Virus record (IMG/VR): IMGVR_UViG_2563366861_000002
Source: a virus
Lineage: Duplodnaviria > Heunggongvirae > Uroviricota > Caudoviricetes
DNA: 49,107 nt
Reading direction: 5' to 3' (one strand)
Below the pieces are notes generated by a model, which saw only the letters and a list, made by a program, of their open reading frames with translations, was not told the DNA's origin and searched no databases. Shown here one piece after another: positions 3,935 through 47,773 of this stretch. The position numbers were made by a program, and so were the translations under genes. The number at the start of each line of letters is the position of its first letter. Within the stretch, counting starts at the first letter, position 1.

Positions 3935-4135
3935 TTAAAGACCTGCCGGGATTTCGTTATTATCCTGGTGAATAACTTTATCGACCGGGTAACAGTTACC
4001 GGGAATTTTCTGTTCGGTTGCTGCAGTCACACACTCCTGCATTGTCCTGTGAACACTGACTGCAATATCAACTGGCTCTCCGGAAACAAGAAAAACTGTC
4101 AGAACAAGTGCAAATGCTGTATTCATTGCCAGCAT
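3935..4135 (-). CDS. hypothetical small secreted protein (signal-peptide-like N-terminus)
   Basis: Internal start MLAMNTAFALVLTVFLVSG... of the 81-aa ORF; hydrophobic N-terminus; AT-rich region; no homology recognised. Confidence 0.3.
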   Translation of the reverse strand: MLAMNTAFALVLTVFLVSGEPVDIAVSVHRTMQECVTAATEQKIPGNCYPVDKVIHQDNNEIPAGL

Positions 4136-4416
4136 CCTTTTTGTATCGGACGTAAACGGGCCAGCATTGAAAGAATGCATATTTTATTTAATAGCTCCCG
4201 TTCGTGTTTTCTCTTGTTAATGGCATCTTCAGTAAATACAGGGTTACTGATATTGACACCAATTTCAAAACAACCTTCAGACGTATTAACGTTTGGTAAT
4301 AACGTTTCCATTATCGCGTCCTCAACAATGAATTTTGTGATGCGGTGCCTGGTGCCTCCAGGTGACGTTAACCAGTTAACAATTAACGCCGGATACAGAG
4401 AATCCACCCATAACAC
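4123..4416 (-). CDS. hypothetical protein
   Basis: 97-aa ORF in AT-rich early-left region; better RBS (GAGGA) precedes internal start METLLP (4311); function unknown. Confidence 0.3.
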   Translation of the reverse strand: MLWVDSLYPALIVNWLTSPGGTRHRITKFIVEDAIMETLLPNVNTSEGCFEIGVNISNPVFTEDAINKRKHERELLNKICILSMLARLRPIQKGCWQ

Positions 4417-4873
4417 TGTTTTTGGTTTTAACTGTTCCGCGTGCGCTCAGCCGCATTCACCACATCACAAAATTCACTTTAAAAAGGGCGGCAGAGCAGT
4501 CACGGAGTAAAACTGATACCGCCAAACGTCACCAGAAAATTGATAACAGAGGGCGTTGCAGCGGGGTTGTCACTTAAGCGTATGGTCAACCTGACAACCC
4601 GGTGTCCTCAACGGGGGAAGGAATAACCCCGCCATACTTACCGCCGCGCCATTTCGCGGATTGCCACAACCGGAAGCGCACGGTCGACGAAAATTTAACG
4701 ACAGGCTATCTATGAACCAGCTACCTCGCCGTGCGCTTTCGCGTTATGGTCTGACTTTTCAGGGAAATATCCTTTCAGTAAACTGTCAGTGCCGGATGCT
4801 CACCCGTGTCCGGCGCACGCACTCCACCTCACCCGTGGAGAACTCCTTAATCACCAACCCTCAGGAGGGTGAA

Positions 4874-5149
4874 ATGTCGACTGAAAATGATGAAATCATT
4901 AACTCCCTGATACGCCAGATTAATAATTTTGATAAAGCATTGCAACATGCTGCGGCGCGTAGTGATATAACTCTTTTAGCAATTTCATTTCTTGCATCTG
5001 TTATGGATAAAAATGAAGTCGTACGACAGAGTCTTGTTGATTATATCGACTCGCTTCAACCCGGCACTTTCAATCATGAGAGCTTCAATCATGAGAAAGA
5101 GCATGTTAAGTCTGTAATTAATTCTCTTATTTTGAATCAAAAGAATTAA
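4874..5149 (+). CDS. hypothetical protein (AT-rich moron-like gene, opposite to early-left operon)
   Basis: ATG at 4874 preceded by GGAGGG RBS; 91 aa; visibly AT-rich; 3' end overlaps convergent gene 5127-5459 by 23 bp. Confidence 0.5.
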   Translation: MSTENDEIINSLIRQINNFDKALQHAAARSDITLLAISFLASVMDKNEVVRQSLVDYIDSLQPGTFNHESFNHEKEHVKSVINSLILNQKN

Positions 5150-5459
5150 TGCTTTTTGTTGCAAAGTAATTTTCAAGGGGTTCTATTCGAATCCCTTTCT
5201 TTTTCATTAACAAGCCAAACCCCTTATCAATGATGTCCATTAGATCCAGGAAGTATTTTTCATGTAAATCCTGGTTATCAGAGAGCTGCTTCTCTTCGTA
5301 CAGCCCGATAAAGGCTCGGCGTACGTTACCGGATATATTGTCGATGGTTTCTTTTTCTACGGTACTCAGGTCAAGAGTCGCCAGTTGAGAGCGAACCACA
5401 TTCGATGCCATTTCCTGGAATGGGACTGGTAAATCTTTAAATTCCATCGTCAACCTCAT
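5127..5459 (-). CDS. hypothetical protein (early-left operon)
   Basis: 110-aa ORF; start overlaps stop of upstream gene in ATGA arrangement (translational coupling). Confidence 0.5.
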   Translation of the reverse strand: MRLTMEFKDLPVPFQEMASNVVRSQLATLDLSTVEKETIDNISGNVRRAFIGLYEEKQLSDNQDLHEKYFLDLMDIIDKGFGLLMKKKGIRIEPLENYFATKSINSFDSK

Positions 5460-5692
5460 CAGTCAGTGTTTCTGGTTAACCAGCGACGTGCGCCAGCTTC
5501 AGTTTTAAACGTTTTGCTTCTGGTATATGTCATCGCGGTAAACGTGCCGTCCTGGTTGGGAAACACGCCGCATACCAGAGATTCGTTGTTGCCAAGCTCG
5601 ATAGTATCCATGCTGACCTCATTTCCCCTTAACGCCGGGGTAGCGGAACAAAAACCTGCTGCATAGTTATTAAAGTTGAACCCTGCCGTCAT
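5459..5692 (-). CDS. hypothetical protein, first gene downstream of leftward early promoter
   Basis: 77-aa ORF immediately downstream (leftward) of candidate PL/OL; not similar to lambda N. Confidence 0.55.
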   Translation of the reverse strand: MTAGFNFNNYAAGFCSATPALRGNEVSMDTIELGNNESLVCGVFPNQDGTFTAMTYTRSKTFKTEAGARRWLTRNTD

Positions 5693-5789
5693 GTTCTTAC
5701 GCCTCGGGCTGGCTACTTAACCCCTGACCACTGCCTGGTAACTCGAGGTATTGCCCTGTATTGTGTGGGACGGGATGGGTTGGTATGGG

Positions 5790-5836
5790 AAAACTATAGG
5801 AAATGCCTAATTACTTGTCAATAGGCTATGCCTAAT
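5790..5836 (-). promoter_or_regulatory. candidate leftward early promoter PL with operator OL
   Basis: Minus strand: -35 TTGACA (plus 5816-5821), 17-bp spacer, -10 TATAGT (plus 5793-5798); overlapped by palindrome TAGGCTATGCCTA (5822-5834) and half-sites GCCTAA. Confidence 0.5.
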
Positions 5837-5929
5837 AATTTGGGCGCAACCTAATAGGTGATGGTTTGTGGGAGAGGTAGTAGGAGTTAACTAACGGGAA
5901 CTAGGAATTTCCCGTCGGACCATATAAGT

Positions 5930-6406
5930 TTAAGTTCCTGTCTTGGTGATGTTCTGGCTTTTCCGTTTTGATTCTTGATTTTTCAGATAGTTAGCTACCT
6001 TCATTTCCATTGCGGCAATGTAGGCGCGAACGTCATGATCAACCCAACTAGGCTCCGTAGCATTTCCAGATAAGATGAAAGCCACAATTGCTCTTTTTTC
6101 ATCAGAGGCGGCTTGATAAAGGCTGTTTATGTCTAAAAGTTCACTTTTTGTATCTGAAGTGGATGGGGTTGGTATGGGGTATTCGTTAAGCCCCCAATGC
6201 TCTGGACCAACCACATCAGAAAAGAAACGCCATAGTTCTGGAAGTTTGTCTTTACTTATCGAACCTTTCTTAATCCAGTCATGGATTGATGGTGGTTGGA
6301 CTTTGAAATGACGTGCGATTTCCGCCTTTGATTTGACGGCTCCTGATGCAATTTTTTTGTTAATGGCCTGCTCTATCGCTCGGCCTAAGTCTTTACCACT
6401 AAGCAT
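5930..6406 (-). CDS. CI-type prophage repressor (RacR-like HTH protein)
   Basis: 158-aa ORF with N-terminal HTH (SKAEIARHFKVQPPSIHDWIKKG); divergent from Cro-like gene; flanked by operator palindromes; resembles my memory of E. coli RacR. Confidence 0.8.
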   Translation of the reverse strand: MLSGKDLGRAIEQAINKKIASGAVKSKAEIARHFKVQPPSIHDWIKKGSISKDKLPELWRFFSDVVGPEHWGLNEYPIPTPSTSDTKSELLDINSLYQAASDEKRAIVAFILSGNATEPSWVDHDVRAYIAAMEMKVANYLKNQESKRKSQNITKTGT

Positions 6407-6458
6407 TGCTTAATAGTCTCCTATGCGCATCGCGTTAGGCAATCCCTACTCTCGATGT

Positions 6459-6503
6459 ATTAGGCATAGCCTATTGACAATTTCATTAGGCTAAGCCTAA
6501 TAT
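6459..6503 (+). promoter_or_regulatory. candidate rightward early promoter PR with operators OR
   Basis: -35 TTGACA (6474-6479), -10 TAATAT (6498-6503); two 15-bp palindromes TTAGGC-N3-GCCTAA at 6460-6474 and 6487-6501 overlap -35 and spacer/-10. Confidence 0.55.
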
Positions 6504-6530
6504 TGTTGCGTGTTTTTTGGAGTTCATTCG

Positions 6531-6854
6531 ATGAAAAAAGATAACTATTCATTCAAACGAGCTTGTGCTGTTGTCGGTGGGCAATCAGCAATGGCTAGGC
6601 TTTTAGGTGTATCTCCTCCAAGCGTAAATCAATGGATCAAAGGTGTACGTCAGTTACCTGCTGAGAGATGTCCTGCGATTGAACGAGCAACAAAAGGTGG
6701 TGTCCTGTGTGAAGAACTTCGTCCTGATGTTGATTGGACATACTTACGACGCTCGTCATGTTATTCGCAGAATATGTCGATGAAGCAACCAAATGACGAA
6801 AACGATCATACCCGAAGCATCAAGAGGCAAATGATTCATGAAAATCAAACATGA
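6531..6854 (+). CDS. Cro/YdaS-like HTH protein
   Basis: ATG 6531 with GGAG RBS; HTH (QSAMARLLGVSPPSVNQWIKG); first gene of rightward operon, position of cro / Rac ydaS. Confidence 0.75.
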   Translation: MKKDNYSFKRACAVVGGQSAMARLLGVSPPSVNQWIKGVRQLPAERCPAIERATKGGVLCEELRPDVDWTYLRRSSCYSQNMSMKQPNDENDHTRSIKRQMIHENQT

Positions 6855-7263
6855 GCACATCCGCATGGCGATGAATGCCTGGGCATACCCTGATGGTGAG
6901 AAAGTTCCTGCAGCTGAAATAGCCCGGACTTATTTCGAACTGGGGATGACGTTCCCTGAACTGTACGACGACAGCCATCCGGAAGCCCTGGCCCGTAATA
7001 CCCAGAAAATTTTCCGTTGGCTGGATAAAGACACCCCTGATGCTGTTGAAAAAATGCAGGCTCTGTTACCGGCGATCGAAAAGGCGATGCCGCCTTTGCT
7101 GGTGGCCCGTATGCGCAGCCACAGTTCTGAATATTACCGTGAGATCGTCGAACGGAGGGATCGGCTGGTGAAGGATGTCGATGATTTTGTTGCGTCAGCG
7201 GTTGTTTTGTATGACCAGATGAATCGCGGCGGCCCGGCAGGGAATGCTGTGGTGATGCACTAA
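6838..7263 (+). CDS. YdaT-like protein (CII-position regulator / putative toxin)
   Basis: 141-aa ORF beginning MKIKHEHI..., matching my recollection of Rac YdaT; follows Cro-like gene. Confidence 0.7.
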   Translation: MKIKHEHIRMAMNAWAYPDGEKVPAAEIARTYFELGMTFPELYDDSHPEALARNTQKIFRWLDKDTPDAVEKMQALLPAIEKAMPPLLVARMRSHSSEYYREIVERRDRLVKDVDDFVASAVVLYDQMNRGGPAGNAVVMH

Positions 7264-7285
7264 AAGCACGGTGTTCGGGGGTTTT

Positions 7286-8248
7286 ATGAGCAGCAAGCTT
7301 CATGGTCTTGTCTGGGAAGGGTGCGCCTTCACCGGCATGATCTTATCCAGGGTGGCGGTTATGGCCCGTCTTGCAGACTACAGCAATGACGAGGGCGTGT
7401 CATGGCCTGCCATTGAAACTATCCGGCGTCAGATCGGTGCAAGAAGTGAATCCACAGTGAAATCGGCTATTGCAGAACTGGCGAAAGAGGGCTGGCTGAC
7501 GAAGGAAGAGCGTAAGGTCGGTGGGCGTAATGTAAGCAATATCTATCGGCTTAATGTGGAAAAACTCGAAGCAGCTGCGGCGGCGGCGCGTGAGTCATAT
7601 AAACCGAAAAGAAAAATTAGCCCGGCAAAAAATGACCCGTTAACAGTTGACCCGTCAAATATTGACCCCTCAACGGTTGACCCGTCAAATTTTGATGGAT
7701 CAACTGTTGATAAAAAACTGCCGATTAGGGGGGCGATGATTGACCCCGATCCGTCAGTATTAAAACCTGATCCGTCAGATAAAAGATCTTCTTGTCCGGA
7801 CGCTTCGCAACCGGACCCGCAGACGGCTGAACAGGATTTTTTAACCCGACACCCTGACGCGGTTGTGTTCAGTGCGAAAAAACGCCAGTGGGGAAGTCAG
7901 GAAGATTTGGTGTGCGCACAGTGGATCTGGGGACGAATCGTGAGTCTTTACGAGCAGGCGGCCAGCGATGATGGCGAGATCACTAGACCGAAAGAACCCA
8001 ACTGGACAGCATGGGCCAATGACGTTCGCACAATGCGGATGCTGGATGGCAGAACTCACAGACAAATTTGTGAAATGTTTGGGCGTCTCCAGCGGGATTC
8101 GTTCTGGGTAAAAAACATCATGAGTCCGGCAAAACTCCGGGAAAAATGGGATGAACTGGTTATCCGCCTGGGGCGTTCGCCTGCGCAGCGTTGCGTGAAT
8201 CACATTTCTGAACCGGACACTGAAATTCCGCCGGGCTTCAGGGGGTAA
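7286..8248 (+). CDS. replication initiation protein (lambda O-like / YdaU-like, winged-helix N-terminus)
   Basis: ~320-aa ORF; N-terminal winged-helix-like region; contains tandem iterons within its coding sequence like lambda O. Confidence 0.75.
   Translation: MSSKLHGLVWEGCAFTGMILSRVAVMARLADYSNDEGVSWPAIETIRRQIGARSESTVKSAIAELAKEGWLTKEERKVGGRNVSNIYRLNVEKLEAAAAAARESYKPKRKISPAKNDPLTVDPSNIDPSTVDPSNFDGSTVDKKLPIRGAMIDPDPSVLKPDPSDKRSSCPDASQPDPQTAEQDFLTRHPDAVVFSAKKRQWGSQEDLVCAQWIWGRIVSLYEQAASDDGEITRPKEPNWTAWANDVRTMRMLDGRTHRQICEMFGRLQRDSFWVKNIMSPAKLREKWDELVIRLGRSPAQRCVNHISEPDTEIPPGFRG
7632..7706. repeat. iteron array (candidate replication origin) inside the O-like gene
   Basis: Five ~15-bp direct repeats: ATGACCCGTTAACAG, TTGACCCGTCAAATA, TTGACCCCTCAACGG, TTGACCCGTCAAATT, TTGATGGATCAACTG, followed by A-rich TTGATAAAAAACTG. 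Confidence 0.55.
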
Positions 8249-10144: not shown

Positions 10145-10355
10145 AAACGGTTTGCGGGAAAAGGAGAGTTAAGTAGAATTGCAGCGGGTGCTTGAGGCTA
10201 TCTGTCTCAGGCATGAACACCAAAAGGCAGATAGAGAAAAGCCCCAGTTAACATTACGCGTCCGGCAAGACGCTTAACATTAATCTGAGGCCATATCTAT
10301 GCTCTACACACGTAGGTTAGCCTCTTACGTGCCGAAAGGCAAGGAGAAGCAGGCT

Positions 10356-10511
10356 ATGAAGCAGCAAAAGGCGATGCTAATCGCCCTGATCGTCATCTGT
10401 TTAACCGTCATTGTGACGGCACTGGTAACGAGGAAAGACCTCTGCGAGGTACGAATCCGAACCGGCCAGACGGAGGTCGCTGTCTTCACAGCTTACGAAC
10501 CTGAGGAGTAA
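10356..10511 (+). CDS. Hok/Gef-family type I toxin (small membrane toxin)
   Basis: MKQQKAMLIALIVICLTVIVTALVTRKDLCEVRIRTGQTEVAVFTAYEPEE matches Hok/Gef family signature (TM helix + LTRKxLCE...EVAxFxAYE); in-frame upstream ATG at 10299. Confidence 0.8.
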   Translation: MKQQKAMLIALIVICLTVIVTALVTRKDLCEVRIRTGQTEVAVFTAYEPEE

Positions 10512-10755: not shown

Positions 10756-11115
10756 ATGGCACTCACTGAATTCGGTAAGGCCGTTAGAAAAGCGAGGATC
10801 GATACTGACAGTACTCTTCTGACTATGTCTCAAGAACTGGGCACTACGCCAGCGTTTCTTAGCGGTTTAGAAACTGGTAGCAAAAAAATACCTCTGAAGT
10901 GGGTTAAGAAGATTGATTCTTACTTCAAGGCCAAAGGTGTAGAAATTGAAGGGTTACAGGAGCTAGCGGCAGTTGCGAATGACTCAGTTCCAGTAAACGG
11001 TTTGTCTCAGCAACAGAAAATGCTTGTAGCGGGATTCGCTAAGTCGCAGTTTACGCCGGAACAGCTAAAGAGTTTTGCAGATTTATTGCAAAAGATTAAT
11101 AACAATGAGGGGTAA
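10756..11115 (+). CDS. XRE-family HTH transcriptional regulator
   Basis: 119-aa ORF; HTH (STLLTMSQELGTTPAFLSGLETG); GAGGA RBS; own promoter-like AT-rich upstream region. Confidence 0.8.
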   Translation: MALTEFGKAVRKARIDTDSTLLTMSQELGTTPAFLSGLETGSKKIPLKWVKKIDSYFKAKGVEIEGLQELAAVANDSVPVNGLSQQQKMLVAGFAKSQFTPEQLKSFADLLQKINNNEG

Positions 11116-11117
11116 TT

Positions 11118-11594
11118 ATGTATCAAATGAGAGGTAACAGGGTGTCACCGATGCAAGAAGAAGAAATAGCCTACAGAGCTATAAACTTCTGTAATGCTAT
11201 TGGTCTTACAGCCTCAAAGCGCAAAAGAAAGCGTTATGATATGTTCTTTGAAAGCCTGTCAATTTATGGGGTTACTCTTGACGTCAGGACCGACAAAGAG
11301 TGGGAGGCTCTGACGTATGATCTAACTATCGGACATTGTGACCCCGCTTCTCTAACAATTACGGTTCCCAATAAAATATATGTGAATGCTTGCCTTGGGG
11401 AAGAGCATGCACTTGCTGTTATCTTCCACGAGCTAGGTCATTTGCTTCTTGGACACAAAGCAGTTTTACACTTTTCAGTTAAAGAACCTACTCGTATTGA
11501 GGATGCAGAATGGCAGGCAGATACATTTGCGGATATCGTACTGGAAACAATTGGCGTGAGAACACAACAGATGTCGTTCGATTTTTATATGTAA
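11118..11594 (+). CDS. ImmA/IrrE-family zinc metallopeptidase
   Basis: 158-aa ORF with HExxH motif (HELGHLLLGH) typical of ImmA/IrrE (COG2856-like) peptidases; immediately downstream of XRE gene. Confidence 0.8.
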   Translation: MYQMRGNRVSPMQEEEIAYRAINFCNAIGLTASKRKRKRYDMFFESLSIYGVTLDVRTDKEWEALTYDLTIGHCDPASLTITVPNKIYVNACLGEEHALAVIFHELGHLLLGHKAVLHFSVKEPTRIEDAEWQADTFADIVLETIGVRTQQMSFDFYM

Positions 11595-16231: not shown

Positions 16232-16307
16232 GGCCCTTTAGCTCAGTGGTGAGAGCGAGCGACTCATAATCGCCAGGTCGCTGGTTCAAATCCAGCAAGG
16301 GCCACCA
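16232..16307 (+). tRNA. tRNA-Ile (anticodon CAT, ileX-like)
   Basis: 76-nt cloverleaf GGCCCTT...AAGGGCC-A-CCA; anticodon loop CTCATAA; near-identical to E. coli tRNA-Ile2 as I recall it. Confidence 0.85.
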
Positions 16308-16316
16308 TATCACATA

Positions 16317-16393
16317 CCACCATTAGCTCATCGGGATAGAGCGCCAGCCTTCGAAGCTGGTTGCGCGGGGTTCGAGTTCTCGATGGCGGTCCA
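16317..16393 (+). tRNA. tRNA-Arg (anticodon TCG), imperfect stems
   Basis: D-arm GCTC-ATCGGGATA-GAGC, anticodon stem CCAGC/GCTGG with loop CTTCGAA, T-loop TTCGAGT, 3' CCA; one acceptor mismatch and wobble-rich T-stem. Confidence 0.55.
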
Positions 16394-16644: not shown

Positions 16645-16848
16645 TGATGATTGTCTGGCTGCCGGAGAATTTGTTAAAAATTACATCGCATGGTGAATCC
16701 CCCTCAGCGGCGGGGCATCTGGCAAAGTGTATGATCCAGAGAACATGCAAATTCAGTAGACAGGCTGAATTTACCGGGAGGCCCCTGGCACCATGCGACA
16801 GACAGAAATTAGGCTATACTTCAGCCCCTCTCCGGAGGGGCTTTTCTG
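16645..16848 (+). ncRNA. candidate structured small RNA / small transcription unit, copy A
   Basis: Promoter-like TTGTCT-17-TAAAAA, conserved GCATGGTG...CACCATGC segments, GC hairpin, and terminator AGCCCCTC-TCCG-GAGGGGCT + TTTTCTG; paralog at 17115-17308. Confidence 0.35.
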
Positions 16849-17114
16849 TGCAGGATGTGTCACAGTTTCCTGAATTCTGAGTACTGTCCTGTTACTCAGG
16901 GTGCTATATTTTCTGACGTGATGAAAGTCTGCCGGAAGGCGGAACGTATCGGAAATGACCCAGTAGAGAAAACGTTGACTCAGATACCGATGCTGAGTTA
17001 CCGGGAAACCGGCATCACATGACCGCTATCCTTCCAGGCTCGCTCCGGCGGGCCTTTTTACTGCAGAAAACAGTTTTCCCGTAAAATGCCACGTTGCTCA
17101 TAATTCAGGCTGGC

Positions 17115-17308
17115 GATTATTGTCTGGCCGGCGGGAAGTTTGTTAAAAAATTTCGCATGGTGAATCCCCCTGTGCGGAGGGGTAATCAGCGAGTAGGTAT
17201 ATGGGATAATCGCGGATTCAGGTGCTGGTACTGAATTCACCGGGAGGCACCCGGCACCATGCAATGGCACATAGCGCCACTCTCCAGCCCCTCTCCGGAG
17301 GGGCTGTT
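17115..17308 (+). ncRNA. candidate structured small RNA / small transcription unit, copy B
   Basis: Same architecture as copy A; internal hairpin differs by compensatory changes (CCCCTCAGCGGCGGGG vs CCCCCTGTGCGGAGGGG). Confidence 0.35.
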
Positions 17309-17340
17309 TATATTGATTTTGTCAGATGTGAGTAAACTCC

Positions 17341-21938: not shown

Positions 21939-22559
21939 ATGAAAGATCAAGATGTTAGGTTCGCGGTGCATCATAAGCTTTTGAAAGAATCGCATTTAGA
22001 TCCAGACTGCCTTGTGGTCGATGAATTTTCCATATCCCTTGGCGCCAGTAGAGCAGACATTGCTGTAATAAATGGTGTTATACACGGGTACGAGCTCAAA
22101 AGTGAATATGACTCTTTGGAGCGTTTGCCTCTTCAAATCAAGCATTATTCTTCTGTAATGGACAAGGTTACTCTTGTCGTAGCTGAGAAACACCTTGAGG
22201 GAGCATTAAAGTTAATCCCAGGTTGGTGGGGCGTTAAAACGGTTTCTGTTGGGCCAAAAGGCGCCATTCTTATAAAGCACATGCGTGGAGAAAAGCTTAA
22301 TCGAAACCATGACACATTGATGCTCGCTCAATTGCTTTGGAAAGATGAATGTATCGACGTACTTGAACGATGGGGCTATTCCAAAGGAATCAAAAGCAAG
22401 CCCCGATTTGAGTTATGGAATATTATTGCGGAAAATATTCCAATAGCGAATCTCAGGCCTGAAGTCAGAACAGCCTTAAAGAAACGCGTAGGCTGGAAAG
22501 TTAAGGCTTGGCAGGCTGAGTCTGCGCCAACCAATAAAGCTGTCTCACGACTAACGTAA
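21939..22559 (+). CDS. predicted PD-(D/E)xK-fold nuclease-like protein (uncharacterised accessory gene)
   Basis: 206-aa ORF, AT-rich; own -10 TATAAT (21905-21910) and AAGGAG RBS; motif VVDEF...RADIAVINGVIHGYELK fits D...D...ExK nuclease core. Confidence 0.7.
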   Translation: MKDQDVRFAVHHKLLKESHLDPDCLVVDEFSISLGASRADIAVINGVIHGYELKSEYDSLERLPLQIKHYSSVMDKVTLVVAEKHLEGALKLIPGWWGVKTVSVGPKGAILIKHMRGEKLNRNHDTLMLAQLLWKDECIDVLERWGYSKGIKSKPRFELWNIIAENIPIANLRPEVRTALKKRVGWKVKAWQAESAPTNKAVSRLT

Positions 22560-23568
22560 TATGGTGCGTATGTGCAACTTTACGCCATTCTTTAGAGCCG
22601 CCAGATTTGTTAGCGCCTAATGATCTTTGGTAAATGTAATCATCCCCCCAACTAAATTTGGAGCCAAAGACTTGATACTCTGGCGAACTAACAAGGGTAG
22701 TACATAAGTTTTTAGTTTGGCCCCATCCATTTCCTTTAACTGCGGTACCTTTTACAAAGATCCATGAGGTATCGTTCGAATATCTCACTGAGACATACTG
22801 AGACATGAAGCGTGGGTCTACGCTCGTAATGGTAGAGCTAGCGGTGGGATAATCACTAAAACTTGGCGTTCTTCCATTGCTAAAATTCTGTACTACGTAC
22901 ATCCAAAGATCGTATTCATGGCGCGGAATATGATGAACTTGATGTTGCGGTATCCCTGCCTGTGATGCCGGGTATGCGGTTGAAGATAAAATCAAGTTTC
23001 TCCACGGAGCTTGGCCTGATAATGTGTTGACCATGCTTAATGCTTGTTGTTTTAAACTATCAGTTGCGTTTTGAATATCTCCAAAATCAATGATTACATC
23101 AATTAAACTAGGATGAATATTTAAGTGGTTAACCAGACTTGTGAATTGGTGCCATGTCTGGGGGGTGATAGACATAGCGAGCCCATTGATTAAGTTGCGT
23201 TGAACAGCATGTATATAGTTTGTTGAATATGCGGGAGAAACAACAGGGATAATTTCCTTACCATTTACTCTAGCATCTTGGATACACATATCTAGAGGAT
23301 GATGGCGGCTCGAACCATGTTTATCTAAATATTTAACATCCAGCAAAACAGGACGATTGGCTTTCCAGGATGCCGCAAGGTTAATACCGAAGTCAGATAA
23401 GTAAGAACTCAAACTCTTCTTGTAGCATTCGTTTTCATAATCCCAGTCTATGTCTGGAATGGTAATGATCGGAGTAAAACCAGAGAGCGTAGTTTGATCT
23501 AAAAGCATCAGAGATTCATATTCAGCAGGCTTCCATTTCAGCTGTGGATAATATTGATGTTGACTCAT
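22501..23568 (-). CDS. uncharacterised 355-aa protein, convergent partner of the nuclease-like gene
   Basis: AT-rich ORF with AAGGAG RBS and promoter-like upstream region; 3' end overlaps 21939-22559 by 59 bp on opposite strand; no catalytic motif recognised by eye. Confidence 0.7.
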   Translation of the reverse strand: MSQHQYYPQLKWKPAEYESLMLLDQTTLSGFTPIITIPDIDWDYENECYKKSLSSYLSDFGINLAASWKANRPVLLDVKYLDKHGSSRHHPLDMCIQDARVNGKEIIPVVSPAYSTNYIHAVQRNLINGLAMSITPQTWHQFTSLVNHLNIHPSLIDVIIDFGDIQNATDSLKQQALSMVNTLSGQAPWRNLILSSTAYPASQAGIPQHQVHHIPRHEYDLWMYVVQNFSNGRTPSFSDYPTASSTITSVDPRFMSQYVSVRYSNDTSWIFVKGTAVKGNGWGQTKNLCTTLVSSPEYQVFGSKFSWGDDYIYQRSLGANKSGGSKEWRKVAHTHHITLVVRQLYWLAQTQPAKP

Positions 23569-47189: not shown

Positions 47190-47773
47190 TGGCATTCAGA
47201 ATGAGTGAACAAGCACGGACCATAAAAATTTATAATCTGCTGGCCGGAACTAATGAATTTATTGGTGAAGGTGACGCATATATTCCGCCTCATACAGGTC
47301 TGCCAGCAAACAGTACCGATATTGCACCACCAGATATTCCTGCTGGCTTTGTGGCTGTTTTCAACAGTGATGAGGCATCGTGGCATCTCGTTGAAGACCA
47401 TCGGGGTAAAACGGTTTATGACGTAGCGTCAGGGGACGAGTTATTTATTTCTGAACTCGGTCCGTTACCGGAAAATGTTACCTGGTTATCGCCGGAAGGG
47501 GAGTTTCAGAAGTGGAACGGCACAGCCTGGGTGAAGGATACGGAAGCAGAAAAAATGTTCCGGATCCGGGAGGCGGAAGAAACAAAAAACAACCTGATGC
47601 AGGTAGCCAGTGAGCATATTGCGCCGCTTCAGGATGCTGCAGATCTGGAAATTGCAACGGAGGAAGAAACCTCATTGCTGGAAGCCTGGAAAAAGTATCG
47701 GGTGTTGCTGAACCGTGTTGATACATCAACTGCACCTGATATTGAGTGGCCTACGAACCCTGTCAGGGAGTAA
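47189..47773 (+). CDS. tfa: tail fiber assembly protein Tfa
   Basis: 194 aa; [17 protein letters not shown]... matches lambda Tfa; start overlaps stf stop. Confidence 0.85.

Follow-up and report, generated by a model that had tools for sequence, protein, structure and literature searches.

A probable Rac-type immunity region with mirror-image operator cassettes on both sides of racR in an Escherichia coli lambdoid prophage

Genes, operators and promoters around racR

The whole stretch of phage DNA analysed here (the window, 49,107 bases) carries a repressor gene on the minus strand and, divergent from it, the gene pair ydaS-ydaT in the expected order and orientation, with matches to PF15943 and PF06254 (Table 1). 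The succession of repressor, YdaS-like and YdaT-like gene, previously likened to that of the Rac prophage, is borne out by these matches. The repressor, which the sequence-only reading had called RacR-like, is RacR itself: its score with the NCBIfam equivalog NF049929, 246.3 bits, exceeds the cut-off of 200, its identity with K-12 RacR is 91% across all 158 residues, the length of both proteins, and the PGAP annotation of the identical region in E. coli genomes is racR. Profile searches with the ORF gave no PHROG match and no Pfam domain (E up to 0.01), and RacR therefore lacks an S24 peptidase domain, which would allow RecA-stimulated autocleavage; it also has no sequence relative in the PDB. 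The published fold consists of an N-terminal lambda-CI-like domain and an unrelated C-terminal domain (PMC11014345). Fourteen residues differ between the two RacR proteins, including residue 42 (H42 here, Y42 in K-12), which lies inside the recognition helix named in PMC11014345. Since position 42 varies in distant RacR homologues that keep TTAGGC half-sites, this exchange is probably not a specificity determinant.

YdaS, the product of the first gene of PR, is 85% identical to K-12 YdaS and matches Cro and YdaS profiles. YdaT is near-identical to PDB 8BT1 (E 3e-89) and just 31% identical to K-12 YdaT; its family assignment is based on the YdaT domain and on the presence of (A/T)TGATT-N6-AATCAA, an inverted repeat, where ydaT begins. 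YdaT here is of the CP-933P type, and yet the 18-mer of this YdaT-box agrees in every letter with one known from footprinting of K-12 Rac (PMC11879457). DNA similarity to K-12 ends at about 6861, and a mosaic joint therefore adjoins the box. Profile searches identified an O-like replication initiator 3' of ydaT, followed by a DUF977/Ren-like gene.

The whole window was searched for TTAGGC-N3-GCCTAA with up to two mismatches. Six matches were found where 1.33 are expected, a number reached in none of 100 shuffles, and all six are located in the two intergenic gaps flanking the repressor gene, three downstream of racR (OL1 to OL3) and three between racR and the cro-like ydaS (OR1 to OR3). The three repeats named in the sequence-only reading are all real, with the third at 6486-6500 and not, one base off, at 6487-6501; the search for further copies suggested there added OL1, OL3, OR3 and a degenerate site over the racR start codon. 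OL2 and OR2 are one outer base each off the strict pattern and match the published (T/A)TAGGC-N3-GCCTA(T/A) exactly. The degenerate site is the O3 of the 2022 paper and lies inside the region footprinted in K-12 (PMC9638921). Palindrome-like matches at 225 and 8656, each with two mismatches, are located within genes in about the number predicted by chance and were discarded.

A consensus scan of 5300-6900 returned only two promoter-like sites, and these are the divergent TTGACA promoters on whose -35 and -10 elements the palindromes had been placed before. In each of the two cassettes one operator lies between -35 and -10 and a second one abuts the -35, and the cassettes are mirror images of each other. 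A 23-bp perfect inverted repeat (5815-5837 / 6458-6480), common to OL2 and OR2, joins one operator and the -35 box on either side. Operator sets are thereby present on both PL (three sites) and PR/PRM (three plus one). The hexamers of PR are identical to those of the experimentally mapped K-12 PydaS (PMC9638921). The -10 boxes of two K-12 racR promoters are changed in the alignment, GAGAAT to GAGACT and AGTAAG to ATCGAG; the first of these, at 6415-6420, is the likely racR -10, judged by its alignment position with K-12 and by the promoter mapping in PMC9638921.

A hairpin follows directly after the racR stop codon. It folds no better than shuffles (z -1.7) and is without a T-run; it is kept in K-12, with paired loss of one G:C, and a terminator scan of 5300-6900 called no terminator. 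An exact 13-nt direct repeat, GGGTTGGTATGGG, is found at 5777-5789, just downstream of the PL -10, and at 6166-6178 inside racR; the copy within the gene shows no variation among 51 relatives, and the one in the leader is largely conserved.

Table 1. Features of the region, in window coordinates
Feature	Position	Strand	Description
DUF1391 (YdaF/YdfA-like) gene	5459-5692	-	first gene of the PL operon; profile matches
PL	5821 to 5793	-	-35 TTGACA 5821-5816, 17-nt spacer, -10 TATAGT 5798-5793; 11/12 consensus
OL1	5796-5810		ATAGGAAATGCCTAA; between PL -35 and -10, overlapping -10
OL2	5821-5835		ATAGGCTATGCCTAA; abuts PL -35, one-base overlap
OL3	5840-5854		TTGGGCGCAACCTAA; weak site
Hairpin	5893-5916	-	GACGGGAA-N8-UUCCCGUU; weak terminator candidate
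racR	5930-6406	-	158-aa prophage repressor; NF049929 equivalog
Degenerate operator over racR ATG	6399-6413		CTAAGCATTGCTTAA; 3 mismatches
Candidate -10 of leaderless racR promoter	6415-6420	-	GAGACT; K-12 PracR3 -10 is GAGAAT
OR3	6435-6449		TTAGGCAATCCCTAC
OR2	6460-6474		TTAGGCATAGCCTAT; abuts PR -35
PR	6474-6503	+	TTGACA, 18-nt spacer, TAATAT; 10/12 consensus
OR1	6486-6500		TTAGGCTAAGCCTAA; perfect palindrome, 0 mismatches; between PR -35 and -10
ydaS	6531-6854	+	Cro analogue; PF15943 3.8e-30, PF14549 P22_Cro 1e-8, HTH_3 3e-5
YdaT-box	6831-6848		ATGATTCATGAAAATCAA; ydaT ATG within its spacer
ydaT	6838-7263	+	CII analogue, CP-933P type; PF06254, phrog_163 'CII-like activator'

Conservation of the cassettes in close and distant relatives

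The region is present in 3730 of 5426 complete E. coli genomes (megablast), where it is annotated as racR, YdaS and YdaT. K-12 Rac aligns at about 87% from OL through ydaS and contains all six sites, and its differences from the window are found in the central three bases of the sites (the spacers) and in the flanks. Loci spanning OL to OR were collected from species-representative genomes and IMG/VR, and the 83 loci obtained gave 51 distinct sequences. Among these, 10 of 78 half-site columns are variable versus 98 of 236 other intergenic columns (Fisher p 2e-6); 12 of the 19 N3 spacer columns vary, and the promoter hexamers, including both of PL, are invariant. In OR1 nearly all variation falls on the three central bases and the one next to them, and in OL1 only position 6 and the spacer vary. 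OL3 has a fixed ACCTAA half and a variable other half; its poor conservation raises the possibility that it is not a genuine operator. The degenerate operator over the racR ATG is invariant in the 51 sequences and closer to the motif in distant relatives.

Distant RacR homologues, 57-78% identical, were found in Mixta, a Pseudomonadota MAG, Proteus mirabilis, Klebsiella phage KpF5 and two Achromobacter, in each case in otherwise unrelated DNA. At all of these loci operator, TTGACA, operator and -10 follow each other upstream of the repressor, a further site lies over its ATG, and the same cassette, with the layout of PL, recurs downstream, 90 bp to 2.3 kb past the stop codon. By our own arithmetic, 6.4 kb should contain about 0.0015 perfect sites, and thus the sites in the distant relatives are not due to chance. 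Non-conservation in related prophages, which the sequence-only reading had named as an argument against itself, was not seen; the palindromes are kept in related and distant prophages alike.

That the right-hand sites alone are functional and the left copies are an inert remnant of a duplicated promoter cassette is very improbable. Two operators, a -35 and a -10 have been retained on the downstream side of the repressor in Mixta, Proteus, KpF5 and Achromobacter amid unrelated DNA, and half-sites and hexamers stay fixed within E. coli as the spacers drift. In favour of a remnant are the degeneracy of OL3 and the 23-bp identity with OR2, which a recent duplication or gene conversion could have produced.

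In Klebsiella phage KpF5 (L096) a DUF450 gene, in the place of lambda rexAB, separates the RacR-like repressor from the OL cassette (5373-5412), which follows 1.4 kb downstream. Pseudomonas phage vB_PaeS-D14H (L097, 3501-4352) encodes a 284-aa repressor with a RacR-like N-terminal domain (52% identity over residues 1-75), the longer C-terminal part of which looks S24/LexA-like (GQSM motif, by eye only); TTAGGC half-sites are found over the repressor ATG and in the downstream cassette. The RacR-type DNA-binding module seems to be common to repressors with different C-terminal domains.

The leftward operon and the surrounding prophage

Leftward from PL, the DUF1391 gene is followed by an unnamed PHROG, the DicF sRNA, DicB, DUF1482 and a RecE-like exonuclease, and comparison with a related genome places excisionase and integrase next in the operon. 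The match to DicF (4486-4537, minus strand) reaches 76.7 bits in Rfam, with a gathering score of 48, and adjoins dicB (4123-4416, minus strand; PF05358). The operon under the Rac-type PL/OL is therefore a Qin-type dicBF cell-division-inhibition operon and not the kilR/sieB operon of K-12 Rac. A plus-strand ORF at 4661-5149 was considered as SieB, since K-12 Rac has a sieB ORF of the same size in the corresponding leftward stretch, and was rejected. No lambda N homologue was found in profile searches, in which the leftward ORFs match DUF1391, the unnamed PHROG, DicB and DUF1482 only; at this level the earlier statement that the leftward operon has none holds.

The 5' end of the predicted PL leader RNA (5693-5787, minus strand) is C-rich and G-poor, with a plus-strand GC skew of +0.35, and the leader contains neither significant structure in folding nor a boxA. 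It is thus closer in appearance to a Rho-loading (rut-like) leader than to an N-utilisation site. In an Achromobacter relative (locus L011), a boxA-like CGCTCTTTAACAA is located about 60 nt downstream of the OL cassette.

In K-12, xisR and intR went up 100-fold when RacR was lowered; the regulon was called uncharacterised and xisR/intR were described as 'far away' from RacR (PMC11014345). For ydaF, ydaG, kilR and racC, increases of 40- to 70-fold have been reported (PMC6765115). If the leftward genes form a RacR-repressed PL operon, a reading made by likeness to lambda and CP-933P (PMC8630535), the leftward derepression in Rac (kilR, recET, xis, int, 40- to 100-fold) would be explained. It is highly unlikely, with the left cassette conserved as it is, that the leftward rise after RacR loss is an indirect effect, for example via YdaS/YdaT or excision.

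The prophage has full-length ORFs for terminase, portal, protease, capsid, tail tube, tape measure, J, side fibre and endolysin. Phage 21-like and ECOR-derived phages share this module at about 90% identity, and head, tail and lysis genes are of the lambda/21 type. As far as full-length ORFs go, it is the structurally complete lambda-like phage that it had been taken for, and judged by its ORFs this appears to be a reasonable description. The prophage of E. coli EC21Z-078 (NZ_CP101257.1) is 100% identical to the window over 5700-7300. About 21 kb with head and tail genes are gone from this sister prophage (L002), which is integrated next to ompW and identical in its immunity region, and what remains of the terminase small subunit is fused to a piece of the tail tip; the case shows decay of a Rac-type prophage with racR retained. 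The idea that the prophage in the window is defective like that of EC21Z-078 was dropped in view of the full-length ORFs; in BLAST, 20415-41377 is absent from EC21Z-078 and the window is a different, larger relative.

The nin region contains an HTH protein gene (10756-11115, plus strand) followed by a gene for an M78/IrrE-like metalloprotease (11118-11594, plus strand; PF06114, phrog_87), and the whole stretch 10756-11594 is absent from the EC21Z-078 relative. An ImmA-like anti-repressor protease is one possibility here, an Xre/COG2856 pair another. Scanning of nin-region ORFs revealed no recognisable antirepressor, the M78/IrrE-like protease being the sole candidate. Between the lysis genes and the terminase lies a convergent gene pair, 21939-22559 (plus strand), encoding an sce7726-family protein (PADLOC 'cll'), and 22501-23568 (minus strand), encoding a Beta_protein (PF14350) with PD-Lambda-2_C-like matches, which looks like an anti-phage defence moron. 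Further Rfam matches, at 10186-10361, 16232-16390, 16658-17315 and 47532-47730, comprise a sok antitoxin RNA, two tRNAs, two STnc100 copies and IS009; in a related genome hokD is found near the sok antitoxin RNA.

A probable lambda-style switch and its relation to known systems

The system is not new: for K-12 Rac the literature already contains the right-hand operators with their consensus, the promoter, the footprints and the octamer. RacR was shown to bind the racR-ydaS gap with its GCCTAA/TTAGGC repeats, forming three EMSA complexes and repressing ydaS (Krishnamurthi 2017, PMC5700373). Wisniewska 2022 mapped PydaS (TTGACA/TAATAT) and the leaderless racR promoter, and the DNase I footprint of RacR yielded the consensus (T/A)TAGGC-n3-GCCTA(T/A) (PMC9638921), so that binding of K-12 RacR at OR has been demonstrated by EMSA, ChIP and DNase I (PMC5700373, PMC9638921). 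In 2023, four inverted repeats at OR and a RacR octamer were described (PMC11014345). YdaS and YdaT were argued to be Cro and CII analogues (PMC5917428) and shown to be so (PMC11879457); the YdaT structure has been solved (PMC9986795), and the YdaT-box and the reverse promoter have been described (PMC11879457). The EMSA and footprinting that had been proposed for the repressor on these palindromes are thus largely done already, with the K-12 orthologue on the same half-sites. Full-size Rac-like prophages have been reported as well, according to the citation of Jobling 2016 in PMC5917428. In literature outside subscription journals we found no description of operators or a promoter downstream of racR, the OL/PL of Rac, and the conserved PL/OL cassette, the sole increment over published work, may be new.

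With K-12 Rac the window shares the repressor family, the operator half-sites at all positions, the PR hexamers, the leaderless racR arrangement and the YdaT-box 18-mer. It differs in its YdaT, in the two racR promoter -10 boxes and in the leftward operon, which carries kilR and sieB in K-12 and the Qin-like DicF and DicB here; in addition, K-12 Rac is defective whereas the prophage in the window retains full-length structural genes. As in lambda, PRM and PR diverge from a region of at least three operators and PL has an operator set of its own; the repressor has a leaderless mRNA and forms octamers (PMC9638921, PMC11014345), and a CII-like protein activates a reverse promoter located within the cro-like gene (PMC11879457). 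In contrast to lambda, RacR is without the S24 autocleavage domain and no N homologue was detected in the window; the operators are 15 bp long instead of 17 bp, OR has four sites, OL and OR are about 0.67 kb apart and not 2.4 kb, and YdaS of K-12 is reported not to repress racR (PMC9638921). CP-933P of E. coli O157:H7 (PaaR2/YdaS/YdaT) has the same gene order, an octameric repressor and a YdaT near-identical to that of the window. Both its OR and its OL/PL sets have been demonstrated, regulated by repressor and YdaS (PMC8630535). Its repressor PaaR2, however, recognises another operator sequence (consensus GTTTAGTAA palindromes), and the paaA2-parE2 toxin-antitoxin pair that follows the repressor is absent in the window.

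The analysis establishes where the sites are, how they are placed on the promoters, that they are conserved and which proteins are encoded around them. We consider, with a probability of about 0.9, that this is the immunity region of a Rac-type lambdoid prophage of E. coli and acts as its lysis-lysogeny switch. The evidence best fits a lambda-style bistable switch whose repressor is non-cleavable. RacR dimers would bind the 15-bp palindromes; at OR1 on the -10 and OR2 on the -35 of PR they would shut off ydaS, ydaT and the replication genes behind them, and at OR3 and the site over the ATG they would act on the leaderless racR promoter, resulting in autoregulation. Judging from the half-sites and their position, RacR would also bind at OL, where the mirror-image cassette of OL2, -35, OL1 and -10, plus the weak OL3, would allow it to shut off PL and with it the DUF1391 gene, DicF, DicB, the RecE-like exonuclease, xis and int. 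YdaT on its box at the ydaS/ydaT junction would boost racR from a reverse promoter inside ydaS, comparable to lambda CII at PRE.

That racR-ydaS-ydaT forms instead a toxin-repressor or atypical toxin-antitoxin module, in which the palindromes merely silence two toxins and no phage switch exists, is hardly credible to us. Pfam does name both families 'toxin', and in K-12 ectopic YdaS/YdaT is toxic and racR is essential (PMC5700373, PMC5700377), but a second operator/promoter cassette facing recombination, excision and integration genes is at odds with such a module, as is the location of the unit at the lambda immunity position in a prophage with full-length structural and lysis genes. Moreover, YdaS matches Cro profiles and YdaT is a DNA-binding CII analogue of solved structure (PMC9986795, PMC11879457), and Jobling's letter argues likewise (PMC5917428). 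For a type II toxin-antitoxin system in particular, the sequence offers nothing that calls for antitoxin-toxin binding, and the literature is against it (PMC5917428, PMC11879457).

Within the switch reading, the RacR octamer would bridge OL and OR, which are about 665 bp apart. In the published octamer model four dimers occupy the four OR repeats and OL is not needed, which counts against a role of OL. It is a tentative reading, to which we give somewhat less than even odds, that the left cassette is a functional RacR target, that the octamer, in the manner of lambda CI, loops OL to OR over these 665 bp rather than filling the four OR repeats, and that the portable module is ancient. This module, operator-TTGACA-operator--10 together with the RacR-type DNA-binding domain, would on the same tentative reading extend from Enterobacteriaceae to Achromobacter and Pseudomonas phages.

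The region can be annotated as a Rac-type immunity switch, and the products of ydaS and ydaT are better described as analogues of Cro and CII than by their Pfam 'toxin' names; beyond annotation this matters little. The PL/OL cassette offers an alternative reading of the RacR octamer, namely OL-OR looping. Since the half-sites are identical and position 42 is free to vary in homologues that keep TTAGGC, the phage in the window is likely to be homoimmune with K-12 Rac. If it is, this apparently intact phage would be a convenient live model for a switch that has been studied so far only in a cryptic prophage.
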